Virus record (IMG/VR): IMGVR_UViG_2700989044_000001
Coordinates: 11,683 to 75,682 of that record
Reading direction: 5' to 3' (one strand)
DNA: 64,000 bases
Origin: a virus
Lineage: Duplodnaviria; Heunggongvirae; Uroviricota; Caudoviricetes
The position numbers and the translations under genes are program-made. The notes below the pieces were generated by a model that searched no databases, had not been told where the DNA came from, and worked only from the letters and a program-made list of their open reading frames with translations. Below are positions 4,015 to 62,007 of the stretch, piece after piece (the stretch's first letter is position 1; each line of letters starts with the position of its first letter).

Positions 4015-4389
4015 ATGAATGATAATAAAAATTTAGCAATTATTTGTGATATACGAAATAGGACTCCAATTGGAGTAATATGTTCTTGTCCAGTTACAGG
4101 CGATCTAGCTTTCTCAACAGAGAATAAAATGTTAGAAGAAACATTAGAAATAATTCTTAGCAGTAAATCATTTCTTTATTCAAAAGAAAAAGTAAATGAA
4201 CAATCAATGATAAATAGAGAAGAAATCAATCCCAATGATCATTATTACTTGATGGCAATTGATTTCTCTCTGCCATTTCCTTGGAGAATACTAGGAATAA
4301 CTTCTGTAGAAGGGGATATAGAACAAATAGTAGGAAATGCCATTGAAATGCTAAAAGAAGGAGGAAACAATTTTGAAACGATTGATTAA
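4015..4389 (+). CDS. hypothetical protein
   Basis: ORF in co-directional array, RBS-like GGTG upstream. Confidence 0.4.
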   Translation: MNDNKNLAIICDIRNRTPIGVICSCPVTGDLAFSTENKMLEETLEIILSSKSFLYSKEKVNEQSMINREEINPNDHYYLMAIDFSLPFPWRILGITSVEGDIEQIVGNAIEMLKEGGNNFETID

Positions 4390-4687
4390 AAAGTCTAACC
4401 ATGTTGAACCATCTATTCATAATGAGGTGGAAGACAAGATTATACATCCAAACACAAATATAAATGAGAATCAAAACCCATCATTTTTATTAACAAGACA
4501 ACTATTTGCAGATACTGCTTTCACGCCTACTGCAACTATTAGTTATCAATTTGCTAGAAAAATTGAAAATGGTGAGTTTAGTCACCTTGGTTCTATTGAA
4601 GAAGCAAGGGGTAATTGGTCAGAATGGTTGAACGCTTTAGATAGTTTTTTAGAAGAATCAGGTCACAAAGGTTTAAAAAAAAACTAA
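4373..4687 (+). CDS. hypothetical protein with MKRLIKK leader
   Basis: TTG start preceded by AAGGAGGAAACAA; N-terminal MKRLIKKS. Confidence 0.45.
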   Translation: MKRLIKKSNHVEPSIHNEVEDKIIHPNTNINENQNPSFLLTRQLFADTAFTPTATISYQFARKIENGEFSHLGSIEEARGNWSEWLNALDSFLEESGHKGLKKN

Positions 4688-11606: not shown

Positions 11607-12455
11607 ATGAGTCAATTATCAAATCAAGAAAAAGAATATTTAATTTCAAAAGCTCTTGAAACTGAAGAAGGCCGTGTAGCATTAGCTCAAGCAATGGCTA
11701 ACCCAATTCGTGTTTCTCTAGACTACCAAGGTGTAGGTCGTAAACTTTTAGTTGTTGACCCACTACCACAAGGCGCATTACCAGTTTACGATAAAGATGT
11801 TGACGCGAAAGCGTTCGTTATCTCTAAACGTGGTCAAGTACCTGATCAAGTTATCGAAGGTGACAGAATTCAAGTTCCAACTTTCGAAATCGTTTCTTAC
11901 CCACAAGTAAGATTCTCACAAGTTAAAGAGCGTCGTTTCAACGTTATTGACCGTGCTCAACAACGTGCTAAAGCTGATATCATGGCTGTTGAAGATGCTG
12001 AAATCTTCTCACTTTTAGAAGGTGCTGCTACAGCAGTTAACGCAGTTACTATCTCTTCTGGTGGTTTACAACGTGCAGCTTTAACTAAAGCTTTCCAAGA
12101 AGTAGAAAAACATGACTTAGTTGTTACTAAAATCGTTATGAACGCTTCTGCTTTCGCTGATATCCGTGCATGGGGACAAAACGAGTTCGACCCTGTAACT
12201 CAACACGAAGTATTACAAACTGGTTTATTCGGACACATCTGGACTGCAGATATCTTAATCTCTAAGAAAGTTCCTCAAAACACAGTTTATGTACTTGCTG
12301 ATCCTGAATTCGTAGGTGTTATGCCTATCCGTCAAGATATTCAAGTAATTCCAGCTGACAAGCCCGAAGAATTACGTCTCGGCTGGGTAATTTACGAAGA
12401 ATTGGGCCTTGCGGTAGTTAACTCTTTAGCAATTGCTAAAATTTCAATCCAATAA
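11607..12455 (+). CDS. major capsid protein (HK97 fold)
   Basis: 282 aa; capsid-like sequence; strong RBS TAGGAGG; high-expression codon bias; strong terminator downstream. Confidence 0.6.
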   Translation: MSQLSNQEKEYLISKALETEEGRVALAQAMANPIRVSLDYQGVGRKLLVVDPLPQGALPVYDKDVDAKAFVISKRGQVPDQVIEGDRIQVPTFEIVSYPQVRFSQVKERRFNVIDRAQQRAKADIMAVEDAEIFSLLEGAATAVNAVTISSGGLQRAALTKAFQEVEKHDLVVTKIVMNASAFADIRAWGQNEFDPVTQHEVLQTGLFGHIWTADILISKKVPQNTVYVLADPEFVGVMPIRQDIQVIPADKPEELRLGWVIYEELGLAVVNSLAIAKISIQ

Positions 12456-16535: not shown

Positions 16536-17051
16536 ATGAAGAGATTAATTAAGAAAGCTTCGGTCTATGATGTTCCTGAGGAATTTTTATTTTATTGGTG
16601 TTCAAGTCCAAGTGATATAAAATATAATTATCCAGAATCTATAGAAAAGATAGCTAATGAAAATACAGATTGTATTTTTAGTGGTGATGCTTATAGATAT
16701 ATTGAGTTACCTAATTTCGAGTATCAAGATAAAGAAATAGATCAATTACTTAAAGAAGCATGGGATGAAGTACAAACAGTCGAGAAGTATAGTTCATTCG
16801 CTTCATCAAAAAGAGGCGTAGAGCATTTTATTACAACTGATTATAGAAGTTTTGGAATTATTATTGAAGCGAATGTTAGCGGGATTGATATAAAGAAACT
16901 AACAAATAAGTATCGCGATACTGTAGATGAACAAGTTTTCGAATACGCTGATACAGAAGATGAAATAGTGACTTTGGATGTTGTTGATTCTTGGGATATA
17001 GCTGCAATAGTTATTGAAGAAGAGGTAGAGTGGATTCAGAGTGATATTTAA
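16536..17051 (+). CDS. hypothetical acidic protein with MKRLIKK leader
   Basis: RBS AAAAGGAGAG; N-terminal MKRLIKKAS. Confidence 0.5.
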   Translation: MKRLIKKASVYDVPEEFLFYWCSSPSDIKYNYPESIEKIANENTDCIFSGDAYRYIELPNFEYQDKEIDQLLKEAWDEVQTVEKYSSFASSKRGVEHFITTDYRSFGIIIEANVSGIDIKKLTNKYRDTVDEQVFEYADTEDEIVTLDVVDSWDIAAIVIEEEVEWIQSDI

Positions 17052-21659: not shown

Positions 21660-22073
21660 ATGATGAATTTCATAAAGAAATCACTTGGATTATTAAATGC
21701 CGCCGAGGGATTTATTCATATTTTTATTGCATGTATCGGGTTTTGGGGAATTTTCGCTACAGGCATTTATGATTGGAGAATTATTTCAGCGCCAGCTATT
21801 AATTTAGTTCTTGGAGTGTTTTCAATTTTTACAGGATACATTTTATTATACGATAAGGTTGGCATACTGAAAAAGATATTAGCAATTTTAAACACTCTTG
21901 AGGGTATTATCCATATAGTTGTAGCTCTTATTGGTTATTGGGGAATTTTTGCATATATGGTATTTGATTGGAGAATTTGGGCTACGCCAACAGAGCACTT
22001 ATTTTTTGGGTTATTCTCAATTTTAACGGGATATATACTTGGTAAAAATCACCATCACCATCATCACCATTAA
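21660..22073 (+). CDS. membrane protein with internal tandem duplication and C-terminal His7
   Basis: Two ~60-aa repeats each with two TM helices (…GFWGIFATGIYDWRI… / …GYWGIFAYMVFDWRI…); ends KNHHHHHHH. Confidence 0.5.
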   Translation: MMNFIKKSLGLLNAAEGFIHIFIACIGFWGIFATGIYDWRIISAPAINLVLGVFSIFTGYILLYDKVGILKKILAILNTLEGIIHIVVALIGYWGIFAYMVFDWRIWATPTEHLFFGLFSILTGYILGKNHHHHHHH

Positions 22074-23498: not shown

Positions 23499-24632
23499 AT
23501 GAAACGTTTAGTAAAAGCTGAACAACAGAGTAGTACTATCAAATTAATGCATGGTACATCTAGTAAATTAGCTGAATCTATTTTTGAAAACGGTCTTTTA
23601 CCGCAAGGATTGACTGATACAAAAATGTTTAATTATAGTGATTATGGTAGAGAAGGCGACGCAAGACATATTGAATGCGTATATTTAACTGATGATTTAG
23701 AAAATGCTGTTAGATACGCTAACAATGCTGTTAAACATAAGGGAGGATTTCCTTTAATTTTCGAAGTGGAAGTTGAGAAATCTGCTTTAACATGGGATGA
23801 CGATGCTTTTTATAAAAACTATGGCGATTTTGATTTTGGAGAAAAAGATGAAGAGTCTGGTACTTGGATCAAAAAACCATCTAAGCAATTGTGGGAACAA
23901 TCATTAACTATCAATAATCAATGTGCTCATTATGGCAAAATTGAAAGAGACAGTTTTAAAAGAATTAACTTAAATTCAAAATGGATCAATATTTATAATT
24001 TTATTAGAATTTACAATAGCTACGATAAGATGAATTTAAAACCAGAGTTGTTAAAAGAAAAAGAAGAATATTACTACAAAGAATTTAGTTTAGAAATAGA
24101 CGATAATTTAAAATTAATGGCTTCGATTATTGACAGAAATATATTTTTGTACAATTTAGAAATCGTAAAATCGCTTGATAAATTCGAAAAACAAGCTTTT
24201 TCATTGATCTTAATGGAATTTTTAAAGGACAATTTGAAAGAATTTGGAGCTAAAATTTTCTATACTTCAGATTTTAAATCATTAAATTTCAATCCAAAAA
24301 TTTCTAGTTTAAACTACGCTTTTGGTAGATTTGAAATAAATAGTTTAGAAAGCATACTTGATCACGTACAATTACGAATTCAACGTATGGATGAAGACTC
24401 TATAATGATGTCGAAGATAGTTAATTGCGAAGCTTCTGAAGAAGAATTTGACTTAATTTATGAGTATAGCATTGATTTCTCTGGAGATTTAATCGAATTC
24501 TGCGAAAAATCTTTACAAATGGATAATGATTCTATTCTTGATGTTTTAAAAAGAGTTAAACATCAGTATAACGATGCGTATAACGAGTTAGATGCTGAAA
24601 TCGAATACTTATTGTATAGAGATCATAAATGA
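23499..24632 (+). CDS. ADP-ribosyltransferase-fold protein (PARP/Tpt1-like NAD-binding lobe) with MKRLVK leader and ~270-aa C-terminal extension
   Basis: LMHGTSSKLAESIFENGLLPQGL...CVYLTDDLENAVRYA...FEVEVE resembles the HGT-GLLP-VHLSxDxExA pattern of KptA/Tpt1 and the H-Y-E lobes of PARPs; RBS AATAGGAGGA. Confidence 0.5.
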   Translation: MKRLVKAEQQSSTIKLMHGTSSKLAESIFENGLLPQGLTDTKMFNYSDYGREGDARHIECVYLTDDLENAVRYANNAVKHKGGFPLIFEVEVEKSALTWDDDAFYKNYGDFDFGEKDEESGTWIKKPSKQLWEQSLTINNQCAHYGKIERDSFKRINLNSKWINIYNFIRIYNSYDKMNLKPELLKEKEEYYYKEFSLEIDDNLKLMASIIDRNIFLYNLEIVKSLDKFEKQAFSLILMEFLKDNLKEFGAKIFYTSDFKSLNFNPKISSLNYAFGRFEINSLESILDHVQLRIQRMDEDSIMMSKIVNCEASEEEFDLIYEYSIDFSGDLIEFCEKSLQMDNDSILDVLKRVKHQYNDAYNELDAEIEYLLYRDHK

Positions 24633-27340: not shown

Positions 27341-27949
27341 ATGAAAAAGAGACTTTTAAAGAAAATTTCAGCGCCTTCTTTAGAAAGAATCTTACCAGGT
27401 TACCCTAATGATTTCATACATTCTGAAAAAGGTTTAGAAATAGTTAATGTTGATGATATTATTGGTATGAGTTTTAGCAGAGCTGATGAATATGATGATA
27501 ACTTTCAACCTATTGGCGAACCAGATGATAGATGGAAAAGTTTACATGATAGAGCTTTACAGGAAGGTAATTTAGACTTCGCAGGACCTATCCATTTAGT
27601 TCAACAAAGTGGTGATAATAAGTATTATGTTTATGATGATGGTAACCATAGGCTTTCAGTTGCTAAATTTCTCAATATCCCAACTCTTCAAGCTGTAGTT
27701 ACGGTTTTGATTCCTAAAAACGATGAAATCGAAGCTGAAATAGAAGGAATAATGAAAGAAATAAAAAAACAAGAATCAATATTGAATCAACTAACAAAAG
27801 AGCAAAATAATCTATGGAATGATGATTTATCTTTAGATGAAATTAATTTAAAGGTAGATGAAATAGAAGAAAAGAAAAAACCATTGTATGAAACGATAGA
27901 TAATCTTTGGCTTAAATTAACAAATTATCAAAATAATTTAATAAATTAA
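27341..27949 (+). CDS. ParB/Srx-like nuclease domain protein with MKKRLLKK leader and C-terminal coiled coil
   Basis: DDGNHRLSVAKF matches the DGxHR..A ParB-N motif; RBS ACAGGAGGTAAAA. Confidence 0.5.
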   Translation: MKKRLLKKISAPSLERILPGYPNDFIHSEKGLEIVNVDDIIGMSFSRADEYDDNFQPIGEPDDRWKSLHDRALQEGNLDFAGPIHLVQQSGDNKYYVYDDGNHRLSVAKFLNIPTLQAVVTVLIPKNDEIEAEIEGIMKEIKKQESILNQLTKEQNNLWNDDLSLDEINLKVDEIEEKKKPLYETIDNLWLKLTNYQNNLIN

Positions 27950-48919: not shown

Positions 48920-48997
48920 AGGGGATTAAAGATAATTGGATAATCGTCTGGCCTCCAAAGCCATGATACGCGGGTTCGATTCCTGCATCCCCTGCCA
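48920..48997 (+). tRNA. tRNA-Trp (CCA) candidate with atypical D-arm
   Basis: Acceptor AGGGGAT/ATCCCCT, anticodon loop CTCCAAA identical to Bacillus tRNA-Trp, T-loop GGTTCGATTCC; no clean D-stem pairing found. Confidence 0.5.
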
Positions 48998-52560: not shown

Positions 52561-53169
52561 GTGGATTGGGGAGAAACAAAACTTAAAAGCATAAAAGAAG
52601 AGATATTGTATGTGTTTCCGTTTGGTTCAAAAGTTTATGGAAATGTTACAAAAAATTCTGATACAGATTTGATTGTAGTTGTTAAGGGCAACGAAGAATT
52701 GAAATATCAAATATGCGATGATGACGGTGATATTCACGTGTATAGTAGAAAAACGTTTGAGGGATTAATAGATAGACATGATATCTCTGCATTAGAGTGT
52801 ATTTTTTCTAACGATACAGATTTTGATTTTGTGTTAGATTTTGAGAAATTAAGAAGATCGATTTCTGCAGTTGCGTCTAATAGTTTTGTAAAGTGTAAGA
52901 AAAAATTAACTTCAGGCTCAGATTATAACCCGTACATAGCAAAGAAAAGTATGTTTCATTCAATAAGAATACTTGAATTTGGAATTCAAATTGCTAAGTA
53001 TGGTAAAATTACAGATTTTGGTTGCGCCAATCACTATTATGAAATGCTGTTGGAGATGGATGATTGGGGAACTATTAAAAATTATTTTCAACCAATTGCA
53101 AATAAATTGAAATCTGAGTTTAAAAAATTAGCACCTTTAGATAAAGATATATATAACAAAAAATGGTAG
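52561..53169 (+). CDS. nucleotidyltransferase (Pol beta superfamily) domain protein
   Basis: FPFGSKVYGNVTKNSDTDLIVV matches the hG[GS]x9-13Dh[DE]h NTase motif; downstream acidic DDDGD. Confidence 0.5.
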   Translation: MDWGETKLKSIKEEILYVFPFGSKVYGNVTKNSDTDLIVVVKGNEELKYQICDDDGDIHVYSRKTFEGLIDRHDISALECIFSNDTDFDFVLDFEKLRRSISAVASNSFVKCKKKLTSGSDYNPYIAKKSMFHSIRILEFGIQIAKYGKITDFGCANHYYEMLLEMDDWGTIKNYFQPIANKLKSEFKKLAPLDKDIYNKKW

Positions 53170-53185
53170 AAAAGAGTGTGAACAT

Positions 53186-53557
53186 ATGGGTTATTTAAGT
53201 TTTTCTGACGCAAAAGATGAAAGAAAGAAACTAGTGAATGGTTGGACTTATATTGAAAAAGCGCTTCCTGGATCTAAAGATGTATTACAACAAATATGTG
53301 CTATGTTAACTTTAGCCCATTCTCCAACTTCTGTTCGTCAAAATAAAAAGAGTGAAAAGAAGAAAAATCTCGTAGTATATAAGTATCATATTGTTTTTGA
53401 AAATGGTAAGAAATTCGCTACTATTTATATTGATATAAATAATAAAGATAATTATAAAGTTAGATTGTTTTATAAAGATAAGAAACCACATGAAGCAAAA
53501 GTTGTTGGATTCTCTACTTTAGATGAATTACAAGAACATATCGCTGATTTCTTATAA
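53186..53557 (+). CDS. hypothetical protein
   Basis: ORF only. Confidence 0.4.
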   Translation: MGYLSFSDAKDERKKLVNGWTYIEKALPGSKDVLQQICAMLTLAHSPTSVRQNKKSEKKKNLVVYKYHIVFENGKKFATIYIDINNKDNYKVRLFYKDKKPHEAKVVGFSTLDELQEHIADFL

Positions 53558-53568
53558 GGAGAATATAA

Positions 53569-53958
53569 ATGAAAAAAAGATTGAAAAGAAAATCTAATAG
53601 TATATTAAATGTCAATGATATATGCGTTAATTACGATTATGTACATGGTGCGTTAGAAAATATTACTTTTGGTCGCATTAGTCAATCAGAAGGACAACCT
53701 TTAGAAATATGGAAAGCAGAGGATGGTAACTTGGTTTTAATTAACGGTTACCATCGCTTTGTAGAAGGTATATTGAAGGGTTTAAATGAGTTTGATGTTA
53801 TTTATGTTGAGTATGATGATGAAAATAAAGAATATATTGATGAGTATAATCCTTCAGCATATGATTTCCTTAATAAGAATTCAAAATATAGAGGGTTAGA
53901 AGATTTCAAGAGTGAAGAAGAATTAGATGAACTCGCATCACTACTATTAGAAGGGTAG
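53569..53958 (+). CDS. hypothetical protein with MKKRLKRK leader (possible ParB-like GYHR motif)
   Basis: LINGYHRFVEG resembles the ParB-N DGxHR motif; N-terminal MKKRLKRK. Confidence 0.4.
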   Translation: MKKRLKRKSNSILNVNDICVNYDYVHGALENITFGRISQSEGQPLEIWKAEDGNLVLINGYHRFVEGILKGLNEFDVIYVEYDDENKEYIDEYNPSAYDFLNKNSKYRGLEDFKSEEELDELASLLLEG

Positions 53959-53965
53959 GTAAATT

Positions 53966-54154
53966 ATGAAAAAGATTGAAACTTTACAAGATGTATCAGA
54001 TTTTGTTGAAAAAGTAAATAGTGTTTCAATAGATAACATAAATGATCTTTTTAAGCAATTAGAAATAAAGAAACAAAATGGTGAAAATGTAGATAAACAA
54101 TTTGAAATGTTAGAAAATTTTAAGAAAATGAAAACAATTTTTAACTCTAATTAG
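53966..54154 (+). CDS. hypothetical protein
   Basis: ORF only. Confidence 0.35.
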   Translation: MKKIETLQDVSDFVEKVNSVSIDNINDLFKQLEIKKQNGENVDKQFEMLENFKKMKTIFNSN

Positions 54155-54167
54155 TAAGGAGATTTGC

Positions 54168-54455
54168 ATGGAAAAGATATATGAAGCTTTAAAAGGTGTA
54201 GTAGCTTCTGTTAAGTTGATAAACCCTAATTTAAGTGATGAATTAGAGTTGGAATATAATGAAATTCAAGTTCGTTTTGCAAATAGCACTAATATGTTTT
54301 ATTTTATAGAATTTGAAGATGGGAAACTAAAGGTTTATGACTATGTGTTTTTAGATGGGCAAAAAAGAATTTACAATAATGTCGATTCTTTTATTAGTCA
54401 TATAGAATTTAATTTTTCACAATTAGTAAGTATAATTGAAAAAATATCAAAGTAA
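54168..54455 (+). CDS. hypothetical protein
   Basis: ORF after AAGGAGATTTGC. Confidence 0.4.
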   Translation: MEKIYEALKGVVASVKLINPNLSDELELEYNEIQVRFANSTNMFYFIEFEDGKLKVYDYVFLDGQKRIYNNVDSFISHIEFNFSQLVSIIEKISK

Positions 54456-54471
54456 AGAAAGAGGTATTAAA

Positions 54472-55302
54472 ATGTCTAGAGATCAATTAGCTAAAATAGC
54501 AAAAGAAACAATTGAAATCGTAAAAAAAGGCAGTTATGTAAATAAAAAGAAAAAGACAATATCAGTCAAAGATGATGTGGATTTTTCTGTAAAAAATACT
54601 AAGTTGTATTCACCAGAAGATGGAGATGAGTTACTTAAAAATTTAACTCAAAATGATATTTTACATCAAACAAAATTTGAATGTAAAAATGAAACAACTT
54701 TATTTGCTGCAAAGAGACTATTAGATGAAGGTTTTAATAATGTAGTTGCTTTAAACTTTGCTTCAGCAAGAAATCCAGGTGGAGGTTTCTTAAAAGGGTC
54801 TTCAGCACAGGAAGAAAGTTTAGCAAGGTCTTCTGCATTGTATGATAGTATTTCTCAAATGAGAGAAATGTATGATTACAATTCTAAAAATAAGAGTGGA
54901 TTATACTCTGACTATATGATTTACTCGCCTTCAGTACCTGTATTTAGAGATAACACAGGGGAGTTACTAGAAAAAAGTTTTAATTGCTCCTTTGTTACTT
55001 CTCCGGCTGTTAATTTAAAAGTTTTACAACAGGAAGAAAAACAAAAGGCTAGAGTTGTCATGGAGCAACGAATCAGAAAGATACTTACTGTGGCACTAGA
55101 AAATAATTGTGATGCTATTGTGCTTGGAGCGTTTGGTTGTGGTGTATTTGGAAATAGACCAGTAGATGTAGCTCAGATTTTTAGACAAGTTTTGAATAGT
55201 ACACAGTTTAAGGGCAAATTTAAAAAAGTATCATTTGCAGTTTACGACAAGACTCCTAATAAACAAATTTTTAATGTTTTTAAAAATACCTTTGGGAGAT
55301 AA
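54472..55302 (+). CDS. microbial-type poly(ADP-ribose) glycohydrolase (DUF2263/PARG)
   Basis: LNFASARNPGGGFLKGSSAQEES contains the PARG signature GGG-X7-QEE; ATG after AAGAAAGAGGTATTAAA. Confidence 0.6.
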   Translation: MSRDQLAKIAKETIEIVKKGSYVNKKKKTISVKDDVDFSVKNTKLYSPEDGDELLKNLTQNDILHQTKFECKNETTLFAAKRLLDEGFNNVVALNFASARNPGGGFLKGSSAQEESLARSSALYDSISQMREMYDYNSKNKSGLYSDYMIYSPSVPVFRDNTGELLEKSFNCSFVTSPAVNLKVLQQEEKQKARVVMEQRIRKILTVALENNCDAIVLGAFGCGVFGNRPVDVAQIFRQVLNSTQFKGKFKKVSFAVYDKTPNKQIFNVFKNTFGR

Positions 55303-55309
55303 TTGATAT

Positions 55310-55540
55310 ATGGGTATTACATTATATAAGATGAGGAAAATGATAGAAGATCATGAGTATGTTGAAGAAATGATAGATATGAGTGATTGGTATCTTGGTA
55401 AAGTATATTTACGCCTTAAATGTAATGATAAATACATTGCAGATATTTTAAGTGGTAACAATGAATTAGACGAATACATTAAACAAGTCAGTTTACTTGT
55501 GCCGTATAATTGTACTATTGAATATGATATAGAAACATAA
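55310..55540 (+). CDS. hypothetical protein
   Basis: ORF only. Confidence 0.4.
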   Translation: MGITLYKMRKMIEDHEYVEEMIDMSDWYLGKVYLRLKCNDKYIADILSGNNELDEYIKQVSLLVPYNCTIEYDIET

Positions 55541-55593
55541 GCAAACAAATTTTGTTTGCTTTTTTAATAAACATTTTTAAAGGGGATTTGGGG

Positions 55594-55998
55594 ATGTATA
55601 AGGCTACTGGTAAAATAGTATTTAATCCCGTAACAAGAGAAGGAGATATGCCAGATAAGTTATGGTGGGTGATGGTAGAATGCCCTCATGATATTATCGA
55701 ATATTATAGGTATTGGGTAACTAAAAACAAAAACTTTAAAATAAGTTACCCACTATTTGGATCACATATATCTATCATTAGGAACGAAGAGCCACCTGAT
55801 GAATTTAAACACTTGTGGGGTAAGAGAAATGGTATGGAAGTTGAGTTTACCTATACTCCAGACTTTGAAACAAACGGAAACTACTGGTGGTTAAAAGTGG
55901 ATTGTCCACAATTAGATGATATTAGAGAAGAGTTGGGTTTACCTAGAAAGCCTTTTTTTGATTATCATTTAAGTATAGGTAAACTCATAAGGGTATAA
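55594..55998 (+). CDS. hypothetical protein
   Basis: ATG after AAAGGGGATTTGGGG. Confidence 0.4.
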   Translation: MYKATGKIVFNPVTREGDMPDKLWWVMVECPHDIIEYYRYWVTKNKNFKISYPLFGSHISIIRNEEPPDEFKHLWGKRNGMEVEFTYTPDFETNGNYWWLKVDCPQLDDIREELGLPRKPFFDYHLSIGKLIRV

Positions 55999-56049
55999 TT
56001 AACGCAATCAATATTCTTATTAAGTTAAAAAGCAATGGAGGTGTAGTTA

Positions 56050-56253
56050 ATGAAAAAATTGATTAGTAAGTTTAAATCTTTTTTTGAGAGAGTTGGAGAA
56101 CTTTTATTTAAAATTTTAGATCGTAGAGTATCTGTAGCTAAAGTAGCAAAAGCTGAAGATCTTGTAATTAGTAATGCTTCTTTAAAAAATATAAAAAGGG
56201 GAATGAGAAAAGTTTATAATGAAGTGTATGGTGCCAGAGAAGATAAAAAATAA
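56050..56253 (+). CDS. hypothetical protein with MKKLISK leader
   Basis: ORF after AATGGAGGTGTAG; N-terminal MKKLISKF. Confidence 0.4.
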   Translation: MKKLISKFKSFFERVGELLFKILDRRVSVAKVAKAEDLVISNASLKNIKRGMRKVYNEVYGAREDKK

Positions 56254-56268
56254 AAAGAGGTGAAAGTT

Positions 56269-56556
56269 ATGCCAGGCGCTGTTAGATTAAATGATACGTG
56301 TAGTGGACATGACGATTTTGGTTCAAGACCTAATAATCAAGCGAGTACAGACGTGTTTGTGAATGGTAGAGGTGCTCATAGACAGGGAGATTCTTGGGCT
56401 GTACATTGTAACCCTGTTCCATCATGTCATGGCGGCAATGCTGCAAATGGAAGTCCTAATGTTTTTGTAAATGGAAAACCAATGTGTAGAATTGGTGATA
56501 GCGTGAATTGTGGTTCCACAATGGTTAATGGTTCGAGTAATGTTTTTGTTAATTAA
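56269..56556 (+). CDS. PAAR-repeat domain protein
   Basis: VFVNGRGAHRQGDSW...C...VFVNGKPMCRIGDSVNCGS...VFVN repeats typical of PAAR spike-tip proteins; ATG after AGAGGTGAAAG. Confidence 0.6.
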   Translation: MPGAVRLNDTCSGHDDFGSRPNNQASTDVFVNGRGAHRQGDSWAVHCNPVPSCHGGNAANGSPNVFVNGKPMCRIGDSVNCGSTMVNGSSNVFVN

Positions 56557-56584
56557 ACATTAATAGAGAAGAGGTTAGTAATAG

Positions 56585-56821
56585 ATGGGTATATTTGAAG
56601 AGATTTCTACATTTATTAAGATGGTTATTAAATCACCTATGAGAATAGTTTGTAAGAGAAAAAAAGATCATGATTGGTATAAACGTGGTGGTGGTTTTAA
56701 CATTTTTGGAACTAAATACCCTTATATTTGCAAAAAATGCGGTTGTAGAAGTAATGGTACCTTTGATGATTTAAAGAAGAAAGGGTTTAAAGGTAAAGCG
56801 AAAATTTATATTAAAAAATAA
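56585..56821 (+). CDS. small zinc-ribbon protein
   Basis: CKR...H...CKKCGC; RBS AGAGGTTAGTAATAG. Confidence 0.4.
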   Translation: MGIFEEISTFIKMVIKSPMRIVCKRKKDHDWYKRGGGFNIFGTKYPYICKKCGCRSNGTFDDLKKKGFKGKAKIYIKK

Positions 56822-56829
56822 TCTGTTAA

Positions 56830-57345
56830 ATTAGATGACTATTTTACAGATAATATATTTATCAAATAATTGAATTTCAATGCAGTTGACCACGTTTGCA
56901 AGGTGGGTAAACGTAATTTAGTAGGGCTATATCGGTATCGCTGCTGGATATAGGGAAAAATTACGTGGATAAGGACTAGTATCCTCGTGGAGTTCAGCGA
57001 TAGAACAACTTCCCATGTTTGAAATTCAAAATGTCCCTAAGTTGCTAGGGGTTATTGAAAAGCAACCGGGTTAGAGAGGCTCATATAAGATACGGTATGA
57101 GTTGTAAGAGCTAAGAAGCCATTGTAAATTCTCTAATCAGGAGTGATGTTCACATGATAGGGCTTAGTGAACTAAATAAAATATGCTTAGTATCAATAAA
57201 TTTAAGAGGTGAGAACAATGTAGTACTTAACTGTGCTATTACCCCTATTTTCACAATTTTTAACGGGGGATTCCTTTTCAAGTTTGTTCTTAATAAACTT
57301 TGAGCCGATCGATGGTTAAAAGACGGAAAATTGTAAATAATTAAG
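56830..57345 (+). ncRNA. candidate large structured noncoding RNA / leader upstream of guaC
   Basis: ~520 nt free of ORFs with multiple nested perfect helices (AAACGTAATT...AATTACGT, CTATATC...GATATAG, GGATA...TATCC); ends in a terminator. Confidence 0.4.
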
Positions 57346-57375
57346 CTGTCCTTCTGCGGAAGGACTAATTTTTTG
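57346..57375 (+). terminator. rho-independent terminator immediately upstream of the guaC RBS
   Basis: GTCCTTC-TGCG-GAAGGAC followed by T6. Confidence 0.75.
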
Positions 57376-57402
57376 TCAAAATTATGTTCTAGGAGTGTAG
57401 AT

Positions 57403-58386
57403 ATGAATAACGTATTTGATTATGAAGATATTCAATTGGTACCAGCAAAGTGTATAGTTGAGAGCCGTTCCGAGTGTGATACATCTATTAGTTTAGGGAA
57501 TCGAAAATTTAAATTACCAGTAGTTCCATCTAATATGCAAACGATTATTGATGAGAAAATAGCTGCTTATTTAGCAGAAAATGGCTATTTCTATGTAATG
57601 CATAGATTTGAACCCGAGACTAGACTTGATTTTATTAAAGATATGCAAACTCGCAACTTATATGCTTCTATTAGTGTTGGTGTAAAAGAAGAAGAGTATC
57701 AATTTATTAATCAATTAGCTGATGAAAAACTTGTTCCAGAATATATCACTATTGATATAGCTCACGGACATTCTAATGCTGTTATTAAAATGATTCAACA
57801 TATAAAGAAGATGTTACCAAATAGTTTTGTTATTGCTGGTAATGTTGGTACACCTGAAGCTGTTCGTGAACTTGAAAATGCAGGCGCAGATGCTACAAAA
57901 GTTGGTATTGGCCCAGGTAAAGTATGTATTACTAAAATCAAAACTGGTTTTGGTACTGGCGGCTGGCAGTTAGCTGCATTGCGTTGGTGTTCAAAAGTAG
58001 CTACTAAACCAATAATTGCTGATGGTGGTATTCGTACTAACGGTGATATTGCTAAATCTGTACGTTTTGGCGCTTCAATGGTTATGATTGGTTCGCTATT
58101 TGCGGGTCACGAGGAATCACCAGGTGAGACGATAGAAAAAAATGGTAAATTATATAAAGAGTATTTTGGATCCGCTTCTGAATATCAAAAGGGTGAAAAG
58201 AAGAACGTTGAAGGAAAGAAGATACATGTAGAATGTAAAGGGAGTTTGAAAGATACGTTGATTGAAATGGAACAAGATCTTCAATCTTCAATTTCTTATG
58301 CTGGTGGTAAAGATTTATTAGCAATTAGAAATGTAGATTATGTCGTTGTTAAGAACTCCATTTTCAATGGAGATAAAAGTTATTAG
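57403..58386 (+). CDS. guaC: GMP reductase
   Basis: [25 protein letters not shown]...[11 protein letters not shown]...GGIR; ~328 aa without CBS domains (GuaC rather than IMPDH); ATG after TAGGAGTG (ORF-track TTG 57373 rejected); recalled Bacillus GuaC is very similar. Confidence 0.85.
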
Positions 58387-58397
58387 GAGGTTATTAA

Positions 58398-58652
58398 ATG
58401 CTTTCAGATACAAAACAAATGTATAGTTTTATCAAGATGAGAGGTTTCAAACAATCAAAAGATGTACTAGGTACTTATTTTGATAAAGGTGATCACAAGC
58501 TAACAATTAATAAACAAGCTGGTTGGTTTATTTGTTATTATAATAGAAAATCTGGAATGTCATGGCAGTTAATAGCTAAAAGCCAAACTCTTGATAATTT
58601 CTCTTCAGCTTTAGGTTGGGTTGTTCAAGAAATACAGAAAAATCAACTATAA
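58398..58652 (+). CDS. hypothetical protein
   Basis: ORF after TAGGAGGTTATT. Confidence 0.45.
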   Translation: MLSDTKQMYSFIKMRGFKQSKDVLGTYFDKGDHKLTINKQAGWFICYYNRKSGMSWQLIAKSQTLDNFSSALGWVVQEIQKNQL

Positions 58653-58667
58653 GAAAGGCGGTTTAGA

Positions 58668-59147
58668 ATGATAACAGCTTTTAGAAGTGATTTAACTAAA
58701 TTGCAAAACGTAGATTATATAGTGAACGCTGCGAATGCAAAAGGTCCCATGGATTCTGGAATAGCTGGGGCAATAAGAATAAATGGTGGAACTGAAATAC
58801 AAGATGCTGCAATGTTAATATGTTCTAAATTAAATTATCAACCTGGAGATATTTATGTTACACATGCTGGTAGATTATCATTTAAGAAAATAATTCACCT
58901 TGTAACAATGGAAAACCCAGGTGGAGTAACTTCATATGATATTGTTAGAAAATGCCTTCAGAATTTAATTTTATACTGTAAAGTTAATAATATTAAGAAA
59001 ATCGCTTTACCAGCTTTAGGTACAGGTGTAGGTGGTTTAGATATTGATAAAATAGCAGGAATTTTTAAAGAAATATTGGGTAGTGTAGAAGAAATAGAGT
59101 TTTTAGTTGTAGATATTGATCCAATGTTTATTTACAATTTTAAATGA
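58668..59147 (+). CDS. Macro domain protein (ADP-ribose binding/hydrolase)
   Basis: YIVNAANAKGPMDSGIAGAI matches the macro-domain VNAAN...G..GAI signature; RBS AAAGGCGG. Confidence 0.55.
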   Translation: MITAFRSDLTKLQNVDYIVNAANAKGPMDSGIAGAIRINGGTEIQDAAMLICSKLNYQPGDIYVTHAGRLSFKKIIHLVTMENPGGVTSYDIVRKCLQNLILYCKVNNIKKIALPALGTGVGGLDIDKIAGIFKEILGSVEEIEFLVVDIDPMFIYNFK

Positions 59148-59182
59148 AATAAGTTGTTTTAAGAAAGATTATTTGATGTATA

Positions 59183-59218
59183 TAGGATATAGCTAGTTTA
59201 GCTATATCCTATTTTTTT
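59183..59218 (+). terminator. rho-independent terminator
   Basis: AGGATATAGCTA-GTT-TAGCTATATCCT followed by T7. Confidence 0.8.
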
Positions 59219-59246
59219 GATTTTAATATTGAAGAGGGTGTTTATA

Positions 59247-60167
59247 TTGAAAAGATTAAAGAGACAATCAAAAGTATTTAGACAATCAAGATTGAAAAAG
59301 AAATCTTGGGATGCAGTGAGTTTAAAACACTATACTAGTACCCAACATTTTATCGAGATAATGAACGAAGGCCAAATAACTCCTGGTGGTTACAATGGGA
59401 ATATCTCAGGTGGTGGACATGTTAAGTATTTATCGATGAGTGATGGCAGCAATACTACAAAAAAAATGTCACCATCAGAAATAGATAGATTATTCTCTAG
59501 TGATTTATGGGAAATTGATAAAGATTTATTGAACTATGTGAATGAAACGAAAGATACTGATGAATGGTACTCAAAACAAATTAATGTAAATATTATTCAA
59601 CCTAGTCATGATCAAAATGGTGTTTATTTAACTAATAGGTCTGATGAAAATGATTACGGAAAAGAAGCTGTTAATAATGGTTTAAGTGACGATTATCCTA
59701 ACTTTGAAATAACTTTAGAATTTAATGTTCAAACTGATGCATTAGGTCCTGACTTAGATGATGGTAAAATAGATAAAGAGAGCGAAACTCCACTTTGGAG
59801 ACAAACTATTGATTCTATAGGTCAGTGTGTACATTATGGTCCTATTTCTATTGACTCAATTAGCCAAGTGATAATAAAGGATTATGGTCAAATAAATGGA
59901 TATGAAATGAGGTTTTCAGATAGAGATAATTTTTTAAGTTGGGCTAGTGAATTTATAAGTTTTGAACAAGGTTTAAGTGCAGCAGATGCATATTCGCAAA
60001 TTCAAAAAATGTATGAAGAATTTGACAATTATTATGAAGAAGAAGACTTTGATGATGAAAATATTAATATCAACGACGATGATGATTTTGATGATGATGA
60101 TATTGATTTTGACATAGATGATTTCGAATTCCCTGAAGATGAATTAAATGATGATGATTTAAAGTAG
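59247..60167 (+). CDS. hypothetical protein with MKRLKRQ leader and poly-acidic C-terminus
   Basis: TTG at 59247 after AGAGGGTG (ORF-track 59217 start is an extension); C-terminal DDDDFDDDDIDFDIDDFEF. Confidence 0.45.
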   Translation: MKRLKRQSKVFRQSRLKKKSWDAVSLKHYTSTQHFIEIMNEGQITPGGYNGNISGGGHVKYLSMSDGSNTTKKMSPSEIDRLFSSDLWEIDKDLLNYVNETKDTDEWYSKQINVNIIQPSHDQNGVYLTNRSDENDYGKEAVNNGLSDDYPNFEITLEFNVQTDALGPDLDDGKIDKESETPLWRQTIDSIGQCVHYGPISIDSISQVIIKDYGQINGYEMRFSDRDNFLSWASEFISFEQGLSAADAYSQIQKMYEEFDNYYEEEDFDDENININDDDDFDDDDIDFDIDDFEFPEDELNDDDLK

Positions 60168-60232
60168 TTAAAATTGTAAAGATTAATCAAACTTATTCAT
60201 ATAATTATCTTGTCTAAGAAGGAGGATGAATA

Positions 60233-61647: not shown

Positions 61648-62007
61648 ATGAAACGTCTTATTAAAAAGTCAGAAAAGACTTATGAAACTAAGAATGATAA
61701 TAATGAAGTTGAACAGCGTGAAGAAGTAGATAATGAAGTTCATGAAGAAGTACAAGAAACAAATCATGAAGAAGTACATCCTGCAGATATGGAGAGAGAA
61801 GACCCTTATCTTGGAAGATATGTAGAAATCACAAATCGTAGATCAAAGTATTATGGTTATCACGCAAGAGTAGATGATAAATTTTATACTGATAGATATA
61901 AAATTTACTTAGAACCAAAAAGAAGTGATGACGATGGTGGAAAAGGGTATATTATCAATTTTGTAGGTGTAAATGTTGCTTCTAACTGGTTTACTGTTGT
62001 TGAGTAA
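61648..62007 (+). CDS. hypothetical acidic protein with MKRLIKK leader
   Basis: RBS GGGGAGGGGAAATTCAA; N-terminal MKRLIKKSEK. Confidence 0.5.
   Translation: MKRLIKKSEKTYETKNDNNEVEQREEVDNEVHEEVQETNHEEVHPADMEREDPYLGRYVEITNRRSKYYGYHARVDDKFYTDRYKIYLEPKRSDDDGGKGYIINFVGVNVASNWFTVVE

Follow-up and report, generated by a model that had tools for sequence, protein, structure and literature searches.

A bacterial-type PARG and a MacroD-like macrodomain of Bacillus phage G as the possible erase arm of a phage ADP-ribosylation system

The 64,000-nucleotide stretch of DNA analysed here (the window; positions 11,683 to 75,682 of IMG/VR record IMGVR_UViG_2700989044_000001) carries two genes for predicted ADP-ribose erasers: gp114, which encodes a bacterial-type poly(ADP-ribose) glycohydrolase (PARG), and gp122, which encodes a MacroD-like macrodomain. 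Region 54000–60200 of the window was 100% identical to Bacillus phage G (JN638751 / NC_023719, 497,513 bp), and window position 1 corresponds to position 11683 of the phage G record. Both open reading frames (ORFs) had been picked out in an original prediction made from the DNA letters, which read one as a PARG with a GGG-X7-QEE signature and the other as a compact Macro domain; both exist on the plus strand at the predicted coordinates and contain the peptides quoted for them. The Macro gene is set in a block of GMP reductase, gp121, Macro, a putative ADP-ribosyltransferase (ART), ThyA and DHFR genes. The features around both genes, and the ART paralog gp53, are collected in Table 1. RefSeq gives gp114 no product name and notes gp122 solely as an 'Appr-1-p processing domain'.

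Table 1. Features at the PARG and Macro loci and the ART paralog gp53, in window coordinates.
Feature	Position	Strand	Description
gp53	23499..24632	+	gp123 paralog; predicted ART-fold domain in the N-terminal ~160 aa, putative triad H18/Y62/E89
gp109 (Pol-beta-type nucleotidyltransferase), gp110, gp111	52561..53958	+	upstream neighbours of PARG
gp114	54472..55302	+	bacterial-type PARG, 276 aa; profile, structure-sequence and motif matches
gp115	55310..55540	+	small protein after PARG in phage G, L011 and L170
terminator-like hairpin	55539..55561	+	after gp115; relatives have an ART gene at that slot
gp116	55594..55998	+	2H phosphoesterase; two H-x-S motifs, GSHISI and YHLSIG
terminator-like hairpin	57348..57365	+	just 5' of gp120, 38 nt before the gene
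gp120	57403..58386	+	GMP reductase; opens the gp120-gp121-Macro block, which terminator-like hairpins bound
gp121	58398..58652	+	84-aa protein; in relatives always immediately 5' of the Macro gene
gp122	58668..59147	+	MacroD-like macrodomain, 159 aa, TTHA0132/Af1521 subtype
terminator-like hairpin, 14 bp with T-run	59182..59212	+	between the Macro gene and gp123
gp123	59247..60167	+	predicted ART-fold, H-Y-E paralog; N-terminal MKRLKRQ tag, acidic C-terminal tail; directly 3' of the Macro gene

gp114 matched the microbial PARG family over the whole model (PF10021, 3e-53, 180.6 bits, cutoff 23.5, model positions 1–146 of 146) and TIGR02452 over nearly all of it (6e-92, 307.9 bits, cutoff 50, model 1–265 of 266). 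Among solved proteins, it aligned over residues 8–275 with the T. curvata enzyme (TcPARG; 3SIG, 3.3e-60) and also matched D. radiodurans PARG (DrPARG; 5ZDA, 2e-50). The signature named in the original prediction is intact and reads G103-G104-G105, seven residues (FLKGSSA), and Q113-E114-E115. The second glutamate of the QEE, E115, aligned with the residue mutated to Ala in the 3SIJ sequence, a position which is the catalytic glutamate of PARG (PMC6445106). A failure of the QEE glutamates to align, the outcome that the original prediction had held to be fatal to this assignment, did not occur. The diphosphate loop GAFGCGVFGN aligned with GAWGCGVFGN of 3SIG; its residues G219, G222, C223, G224, V225, F226 and N228 were invariant in an alignment of 35 PARGs, and gp114 kept 40 of the 40 invariant columns of that alignment.

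Similar to the bacterial PARGs 3SIG, DrPARG and SCO0909, gp114 is a stand-alone protein of ~276 residues with a near-full-length alignment and the conserved catalytic Glu. By analogy, its chemistry is probably shared with theirs, that is, action on 1''-2' bonds in poly(ADP-ribose) (PAR), on 2'-O-ADP-ribosylated RNA and on 5'-phospho-ADP-ribose ends. In contrast to these enzymes, gp114 comes from a 497-kb phage, and its context is a phage ART family instead of NADAR, ARH or repair genes. It also departs from one of them at the ribose cap. In the T. curvata enzyme an Arg268-Asp261 salt bridge blocks the adenosine 2'-OH, and TcPARG is an obligate exo-enzyme, whereas DrPARG, with Thr267 at the ribose-cap position, has endo plus exo activity (PMC6445106). 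This salt bridge is incomplete in gp114, in which the Asp is kept (D259) and the Arg position is Ile266. Because of Ile266 at this position, gp114 resembles DrPARG rather than the obligate exo-enzyme, and its active site is predicted to be open and DrPARG-like. Family membership is not affected by the missing Arg; judged by its sequence, gp114 is a full-length bacterial-type PARG.

gp122 scored far above the cutoff of the Pfam Macro model (PF01661, 7.4e-25, 87.6 bits, cutoff 22). Its best solved relative was TTHA0132 (2DX6, 5e-15), and 2DX6, PARP14 macro1, YmdB, OiMacroD and MacroD1/2 all outranked DarG (5M31, 9e-7). Loop 1 reads N20-A-A-N23...D-S-G-I-A33-G-A-I and loop 2 reads G118-T-G-V-G-G123. 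Set against the MacroD consensus (loop 1 N-x6-GG[VLI]-[DA], loop 2 G-[VIA]-[YF]-G), N23 and A33 are present, Ser30 replaces the first Gly, and Gly122 replaces the loop-2 aromatic, as it does in TTHA0132. Ala33 occupies the 'catalytic Asp' position, at which TTHA0132 and Af1521 have the same Ala. gp122 is like TTHA0132 and Af1521 in fold, in length, in its NAAN motif and in this Ala, and like TTHA0132 in its GTGVGG loop 2; unlike them, it has Ser30 in place of the first loop-1 Gly or Ala, and its gene is phage-encoded.

The departures from the MacroD motifs at Ser30, Ala33 and Gly122 would suit a protein that binds ADP-ribose without cleaving it, and the top NCBIfam model, which scored far under its cutoff, bears the name 'ADP-ribose-binding protein'. 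Nonetheless, that gp114, gp122 or both are such non-catalytic readers, or decaying genes, is very improbable. gp114 keeps every invariant PARG residue, the gp122 motifs are retained in its many relatives at 64–77% identity, and Af1521, with the same Asp-to-Ala change, is an active enzyme (PMC5413906). The G+C content of both genes is in line with that of the genome, which argues against decay and also led us to reject a recent horizontal acquisition of gp114 and gp122.

The original prediction had further proposed that these enzymes counter DarTG-type DNA ADP-ribosylation, and here the properties of gp122 point the other way. gp122 reached 58.3 bits with the NCBIfam DarG model (cutoff 250) and 56 bits with that of PADLOC, and pairwise BLAST against AdfM (PhiKZ gp104), a phage anti-DarT macrodomain, gave an E value of 0.095. 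There is a likeness to AdfM and DarG, which are phage or bacterial macrodomains, in the potential to reverse ADP-ribosylation and in a similar loop-2 LGxxxGGLD. However, loop 1 of gp122 is MacroD-type, and motif alignment places a Met where the FPTK lysine stands. By hand alignment, this DarG/TARG1 lysine (Taq DarG K80, TARG1 K84) is absent, the FPTK strand reading LVTME in gp122 and LVTMK in the orthologue from a relative described below (L011), so that no Lys is conserved. DarG/TARG1-type enzymes remove thymidine-linked ADP-ribose efficiently, and MACROD1 and fly Parg are inactive on it (PMC12879935). gp122 was therefore rejected as an AdfM/DarG-type anti-DarT enzyme, on low pairwise similarity and the absence of the catalytic lysine, despite its DarG profile scores of 56–58 bits. 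On these alignments and the published linkage specificity, an anti-DarT role for gp114 or gp122 is disfavoured.

The candidate writers of phage G form one family. gp53, which the original prediction had named as the writer, does appear to be an ART-fold protein by structure and profile, but its sequence support is weak, and it is one of ten paralogs and lies 30 kb off. It matched Pfam PARP (PF00644) at 2.5e-4 and 21.1 bits, under the gathering cutoff of 26.7, and gp123 gave no match; for both proteins, searches of PDB sequences by phmmer or with the family profile returned nothing, as did NCBIfam and PADLOC. Because assignment from sequence had failed, structure prediction was needed, and the predicted structures together with profile work support gp53 and gp123 as ART-fold proteins. 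The two are homologous (BLASTP 2e-6) and share one PHROG (1e-75 and 3e-18), and the N-terminus of gp53 is 36% identical to a Vibrio jumbo-phage 'PARP catalytic domain protein' (tblastn, E 1e-6). The family profile found 141 cluster representatives among 1.84 billion. When 85 representatives were scanned with Pfam, the families matched by more than one member were PARP (8 of 85, counted at E ≤ 1e-3), ART-PolyVal (3) and Tpt1/KptA (3). Over the whole record, the family hidden Markov model identified ten phage G paralogs (gp53, gp123, gp141, gp233, gp251, gp336, gp531, gp532, gp568 and gp610), a count which agrees with the published statement that phage G encodes at least ten ARTs (Iyer et al. 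2022, PMC9503650).

Alignment of the family revealed an invariant His (L-Y-H-G-T-S), a Tyr or Phe (V-Y-L) and, in 9 of 13 sequences, a Glu (v-v-L-E-v). It places the putative H-Y-E triad of gp123 at H38/Y137/E168 (316-aa ORF numbering) and that of gp53 at the residues given in Table 1. A KptA-like identity was considered for gp53 and gp123, since Tpt1 was among the fold matches, and was rejected: the Tpt1 Arg-His pair is absent (motif L-Y-H-G-T-S), and phage G has a genuine KptA, gp280.

The family has several further traits. gp123 ends in an extreme acidic tail (window 60020–60167), DDDDFDDDDIDFDIDDFEFPEDELNDDDLK, which is missing in homologues. ARTs of the gp123 family also occur as tandem pairs, in L006 (4456–6457) and L005 (9165–10834); one pair comes after tubulin and PPDK-like genes, a setting shared with gp141 of phage G, and the other belongs to a contig that also encodes relaxase, TrbL and TraG and looks like a plasmid or phage-plasmid. 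The motif [KR]RL[IKLVMR][KR][KRAT] was found 23 times in phage G ORFs, compared with 0.8 expected in shuffles, and ~20 of these 23 KRLxKK-type tags stand at the extreme N-terminus of mutually non-homologous proteins. Its carriers include most ART paralogs, gp334, the ParB-like gp284, gp111 and gp126; PARG, Macro and ARH are untagged. Tagged genes in the window are gp17 (4373–4687), gp38 (16536–17051), gp53, gp57 (27341–27949), gp111 (53569–53958), gp123 and gp126 (61648–62007), and ~13 more lie elsewhere in phage G. As M-(K)-K/R-R-L-x-K/R-K, the N-terminal tag is a family-wide consensus of ART homologues, including metagenomic relatives, and it might serve in targeting or packaging. We rejected gp111 as a ParB-like paralog of gp284, their likeness being confined to the motif (E 0.07).

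Genes for erasers and for members of this ART family adjoin each other repeatedly. In phage G, Macro gp122 is directly followed by ART gp123; ARH gp234 (PF03747, 2.9e-61) and ART gp233 are divergently transcribed neighbours; and ART gp336 lies two genes after the DrHyd-family gp334, a NUDIX hydrolase according to its RefSeq note. The gp233-gp234 pair (phage G record 163172–164823; L162 37490–39141) is two genes from the NAD-dependent DNA ligase. Among relatives, L011 (protein identities 40–84%) has the order gp109, gp110, PARG (64%), gp115, a 190-aa ART, 2H (76%), PAAR, GMP reductase (82%), gp121, Macro (74%), a 152-aa ART, ThyA and DHFR. L170 runs gp109, gp110, PARG (66%), gp115, a 349-aa ART and 2H. 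In L014, a 71-kb IMG/VR contig, a 187-aa ART-family gene ends 79 nt before a PARG that is on the same strand and 53% identical to gp114. In each of these three relatives an ART-family gene is at most one gene from PARG. The co-conserved adjacent writer-eraser pairs are Macro-gp123 and gp234-gp233, Macro-ART in L011, and PARG-ART in L011, L170 and L014. Of the genes upstream of PARG, gp109 and gp110 are found again in L004, L011 and L170, and gp111 in L004 alone; in L004, one gene stands between PARG and gp115. The 2H gene gp116 is kept in all examined phage-G-like relatives that cover the region. Macro beside PARG was rejected as a general viral pattern, as it was seen in phage G and L011 alone.

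In permutations of the ten ART positions among 694 phage G features, which were run post hoc with the pattern already seen, at least 2 of 3 hydrolases adjoined an ART paralog with P = 0.0024, and at least 3 of 8 NAD/ADP-ribose genes lay within two genes of an ART paralog with P = 0.008. The arrangement is like that of known ART-hydrolase pairs (DraT-DraG, DarT-DarG, Tre1-Tri1, SirTM-Macro), in which the writer gene adjoins the eraser gene, and phage ART-ARG gene pairs were noted by Iyer et al. 2022 (PMC9503650); in the phage G lineage, a single ART family supplies the partners of three different eraser classes. In contrast to the known pairs, a hairpin stands between Macro and gp123, the KRLxKK tag is on writers and not on erasers, and toxicity and antidote behaviour are putative.

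We favour the explanation that gp114 and gp122 are competent hydrolases that form the erase arm of phage G's own ADP-ribosylation system, and we give it a probability of about 0.45. It builds on the observed domain identities and intact motifs, on the ART fold and triad of the writers, and on gene adjacency that is conserved in relatives, and it is favoured because three hydrolase classes adjoin one ART family non-randomly and because three independent contigs pair PARG with an ART. Service to the phage's own ART activity had been the second alternative in the original prediction, and of its proposals this one emerged as the best supported, with gp123 abutting Macro and relatives placing ARTs by PARG. 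The write arm would consist of the ten-paralog H-Y-E ART-fold family, gp53 and gp123 included, and KptA. On the erasing side, gp114 would hydrolyse alpha(1''-2') ribose-ribose O-glycosidic bonds, in PAR that a partner ART produces as well as where ADP-ribose sits on RNA 2'-OH groups, and would strip ADP-ribose caps from 5'-phosphate ends, such as those made by KptA. We infer these activities because they have been measured for bacterial PARGs: SCO0909 and DrPARG reverse 2'-OH RNA ADP-ribosylation made by RhsP2, which has the same 1''-2' linkage as PAR, and SCO0909 is the most active enzyme on 5'-phospho-ADP-ribose RNA (PMC11833690). gp122 would clear acidic residues or phosphate ends of mono-ADP-ribose or, alternatively, would dephosphorylate ADP-ribose-1''-phosphate from the KptA plus 2H route. 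The phage's own modifications would thereby be reversible, or be kept off phage molecules, free ADP-ribose would go back to Nudix enzymes and phage NAD salvage, and, as a by-benefit, the phage would be protected against host ART toxins that form these linkages.

A bolder version would have the phage G lineage run a self-contained writer-eraser system with ribose-ribose linkages (true PAR or 2'-O-ADP-ribosylated RNA), in which tagged writers are exported and untagged erasers serve as immunity. The KRLxKK tag, on ~20 proteins including most ARTs and gp334, would send its carriers to the virion or a compartment for next-host delivery, and PARG, Macro and ARH, being untagged, would remain in the producing cell as linkage-specific immunity. 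A side possibility here is that gp114 might also open immune signals of the 1''-2' glycocyclic ADP-ribose type, in which this bond occurs too. We speculate on this version while regarding it as quite improbable.

Several observations weigh against an erase arm for the phage's own ADP-ribosylation. The PARG of phage G has no adjoining ART, the nearest being 4 kb away, and after gp115, where L011 and L170 have an ART, there is just a terminator-like hairpin. A strong hairpin splits Macro from gp123. Over the 20-kb stretches compared, two more distant contigs, L158 and L159, retain 2H and gp121-Macro-ThyA-DHFR but have neither an adjacent ART nor any PARG, and therefore the ancestral Macro role did not need that ART. 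The Glu is missing from 4 of the 13 aligned ART-family members, and the activity of the family is predicted; the adjacency P values were computed post hoc. Finally, no ART family was among the 25 most frequent neighbour families listed for 68 bacterial PARG loci, whose neighbours fit a general detoxification or repair role.

This survey covered 133 immediate neighbours of the 68 bacterial PARG genes by Pfam scan. NADAR was found in 20 of the 133, Macro in 7, ARH and TROVE/Ro60 in 5 each, NMN transporter and Nudix in 3 each, and Hen1, KptA and isochorismatase in 2 each. Clusters of PARG with NADAR, Macro and ARH resemble a multi-linkage detoxification kit, and suggest that gp114 and gp122 could have been captured from Bacillales hosts as a counter-defence that strips off ADP-ribose which host ART toxins or abortive-infection systems attach to RNA, DNA or protein of the phage or of the translation machinery, the ART neighbours being incidental. 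The origin of the closest named cellular homologues agrees with such a capture: those of gp114 are from Bacillus (e.g. B. cereus), Priestia, Brevibacillus and Paenibacillus (about 50–54% identity), and cellular homologues of gp122, 51–60% identical, are from Bacillus, Priestia, Geobacillus and kin. The nearest gp114 relatives of all are metagenomic proteins at 57–69% identity; the contigs examined for several of these were phage-like (L004, L011, L170), and a copy with 62% identity is found on a contig whose genes are Bacillales-like. There are precedents as well. Phage AdfM defeats DarT2 (PMC13309987), orphan antitoxin-like enzymes act against DarTG1 (PMC11825919), and SCO0909 and DrPARG both protect E. 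coli from RhsP2, an RNA-targeting toxin (PMC11833690). One PARG, 51% identical to gp114 and on a 516-kb metagenomic contig (L003 7268–10867), is directly downstream of a cyclic-oligonucleotide-based antiphage signaling system (CBASS) pair, a SAVED effector and a SMODS cyclase; a DUF488 gene follows 4 kb on.

Nevertheless, we hold counter-defence to be a less likely explanation of the pair, though a serious competitor. No host ART defence with PARG- or MacroD-type linkages has been identified for the phage G host; the thymine and guanine linkages made by DarT require DarG/TARG1-type or NADAR enzymes; and gp122, by motif alignment, has no DarG lysine and is far from AdfM. Capture from the host would also leave unexplained the non-random adjacency to ART paralogs, which is repeated in four contigs. 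As a separate observation, a Geobacillus chromosomal homologue of gp122 (L160 3886–6489) shares an overlap with a DUF488 gene and is preceded by an AAA_15/AAA_21 ATPase gene, a setting with the look of a defence island.

RNA repair and NAD metabolism offer another context for both enzymes. The neighbours of viral PARGs are scattered over YpsA- and DprA-type SLOG, HD, Thg1, Ro60 vWA, RlaP and NAD ligase genes. BLAST clustering of 47 viral locus groups yielded no single conserved partner gene, and a Pfam scan of the genes next to viral PARGs gave no common partner either, just SLOG, HD and RNA-repair genes here and there. Hen1 and KptA were also within the bacterial and viral neighbourhoods surveyed, and a Priestia PARG is two genes from KptA. 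Beyond the phage G lineage, the company of PARG thus consists of other erasers, RNA repair genes and NAD salvage genes.

Phage G itself is rich in such genes, which were taken from RefSeq notes and confirmed by profile where checked. Its KptA, gp280 (PF01885, 4e-39), is surrounded by an NAD salvage cluster of isochorismatase gp275, NAPRTase gp277, NadD gp281, NadE gp283 and Nudix-NrtR gp273 (phage G record 200123–207883; L163 24441–32201), at the end of which stands a tagged ParB-like protein. Elsewhere there are an NAD-dependent ligase, three RNA ligases, Thg1, two CCA-adding enzymes and a TROVE/Ro60 protein, as well as at least 18 tRNAs, one tmRNA and a second Macro, gp437 (24.3 bits, cutoff 22). 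The 2H-SAK match of gp116 was sub-threshold (3.4e-5), with both H-x-S motifs present. The original prediction had found a writer and two erasers in one phage region notable. PARG is indeed unusual for a phage, but the rarity was overstated and the system understated, as phage G has, beyond those three genes, ARH, the second Macro, KptA, 2H, Nudix enzymes and NAD salvage.

With this large gene set, gp114 and gp122 might process by-products of RNA repair and NAD metabolites. KptA, with NAD, would remove a tRNA 2'-phosphate to give ADP-ribose 1''-2'' cyclic phosphate, gp116 would open the ring, gp122 would take off the 1''-phosphate, PARG would clear 5'-phosphate ADP-ribose caps left by KptA, and Nudix and salvage enzymes would recycle the products; in a variant, NAD-derived immune signals would be broken down. 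A KptA-2H-Macro route has been proposed for jumbo phages by Iyer et al. (PMC9503650), and phage G has all three enzyme types of the Tpt1/KptA-2H-Poa1p tRNA repair pathway (gp280, gp116 and gp122). 2H and gp121-Macro are co-conserved across the wider lineage within a nucleotide-metabolism block. KptA, Hen1, TROVE/Ro60, Thg1 and RlaP among bacterial and viral PARG neighbours, and the Priestia PARG near KptA, are also in accord with such processing, as are the position of the DrPARG gene inside a ligase/Pnk repair operon and the rank of SCO0909 as the best 5'-phospho-ADP-ribose RNA hydrolase tested (PMC11833690). It remains a competing explanation of this pair, though we consider it unlikely. Unlike in the known pathway, the phage G genes are dispersed, with KptA 134 kb away from gp114 and gp122. 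The identification of gp122 as an Appr-1''-p phosphatase comes solely from the RefSeq note and the PHROG label 'phosphatase', and gp122 is without the loop-2 aromatic of characterised MacroD/Poa1p-type enzymes, which makes its substrate uncertain. This route also gives no reason for ART paralogs beside three different hydrolases. Erasure of the phage's own marks, counter-defence and by-product processing are mutually compatible and not exclusive.

Other observations were made in the window. The PAAR-motif protein gp118 (56260–56556) sits between the PARG and Macro blocks, and in the same place in L011. Between gp119 and the GMP reductase gene are 580 nt without an annotated gene (56822–57402), with a G+C content of 0.38, above that of the surroundings; the counterpart of this gap in L011 contains a 201-aa ORF. 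A riboswitch in the gap was rejected, there being no Rfam match at E ≤ 1 and a fold z-score of -1.94. At 48921–48994 is a tRNA by Rfam (37 bits), which RefSeq gives as tRNA-Trp and for which ARAGORN makes no call. gp48 (21660–22073) is membrane-like and internally duplicated, and has a natural run of seven histidines at its C-terminus.

PARG homologues were present in 20 of 50,697 phage records, those listed being phage G, fifteen Lak megaphages, two uncultured phages of 595–642 kb and one 23-kb contig. A further 2.9 million contigs, those of IMG/VR, yielded 64 PARG loci, on contigs with a median length of 170 kb; 49 of the 64 were at least 100 kb. Phage PARGs belong for the most part to very large genomes. 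The strict GGG-x(5-9)-QEE was kept in 34 of 47 distinct viral PARG locus groups. Viral proteins of 1772 and 1435 aa (L076 6059–11377, and L075) also contain a PARG domain with GGG...QEE intact. Homologues of the gp122 Macro were found in 281 phage records, and Macro domains occur in 56% of jumbo phages (Iyer et al. 2022, PMC9503650).

Both protein families, the many ARTs of phage G and the Macro domains of jumbo phages were already known from published work, and a literature search of incomplete coverage found no publication on a phage-encoded PARG. What is new is a bacterial-type PARG in a cultured phage, with a bias of the family to phages of very large genome size; the repeated placing of ART genes beside PARG, Macro and ARH genes in the phage G lineage; and an N-terminal tag common to writers and not found on erasers. 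For annotation, gp114, gp116, gp53, gp123 and eight more ART paralogs, which have no RefSeq name at present, stand to gain one. ART-PARG pairs could bear on the physiology of bacterial-type PARGs and on whether bacterial systems make ribose-ribose ADP-ribose linkages, and L014 (genes 79 nt apart), L011 and L170 (PARG-gp115-ART) provide small, defined writer-eraser candidates. Phage G, in which one ART family is paired with three hydrolase classes, could serve to map linkage specificity.

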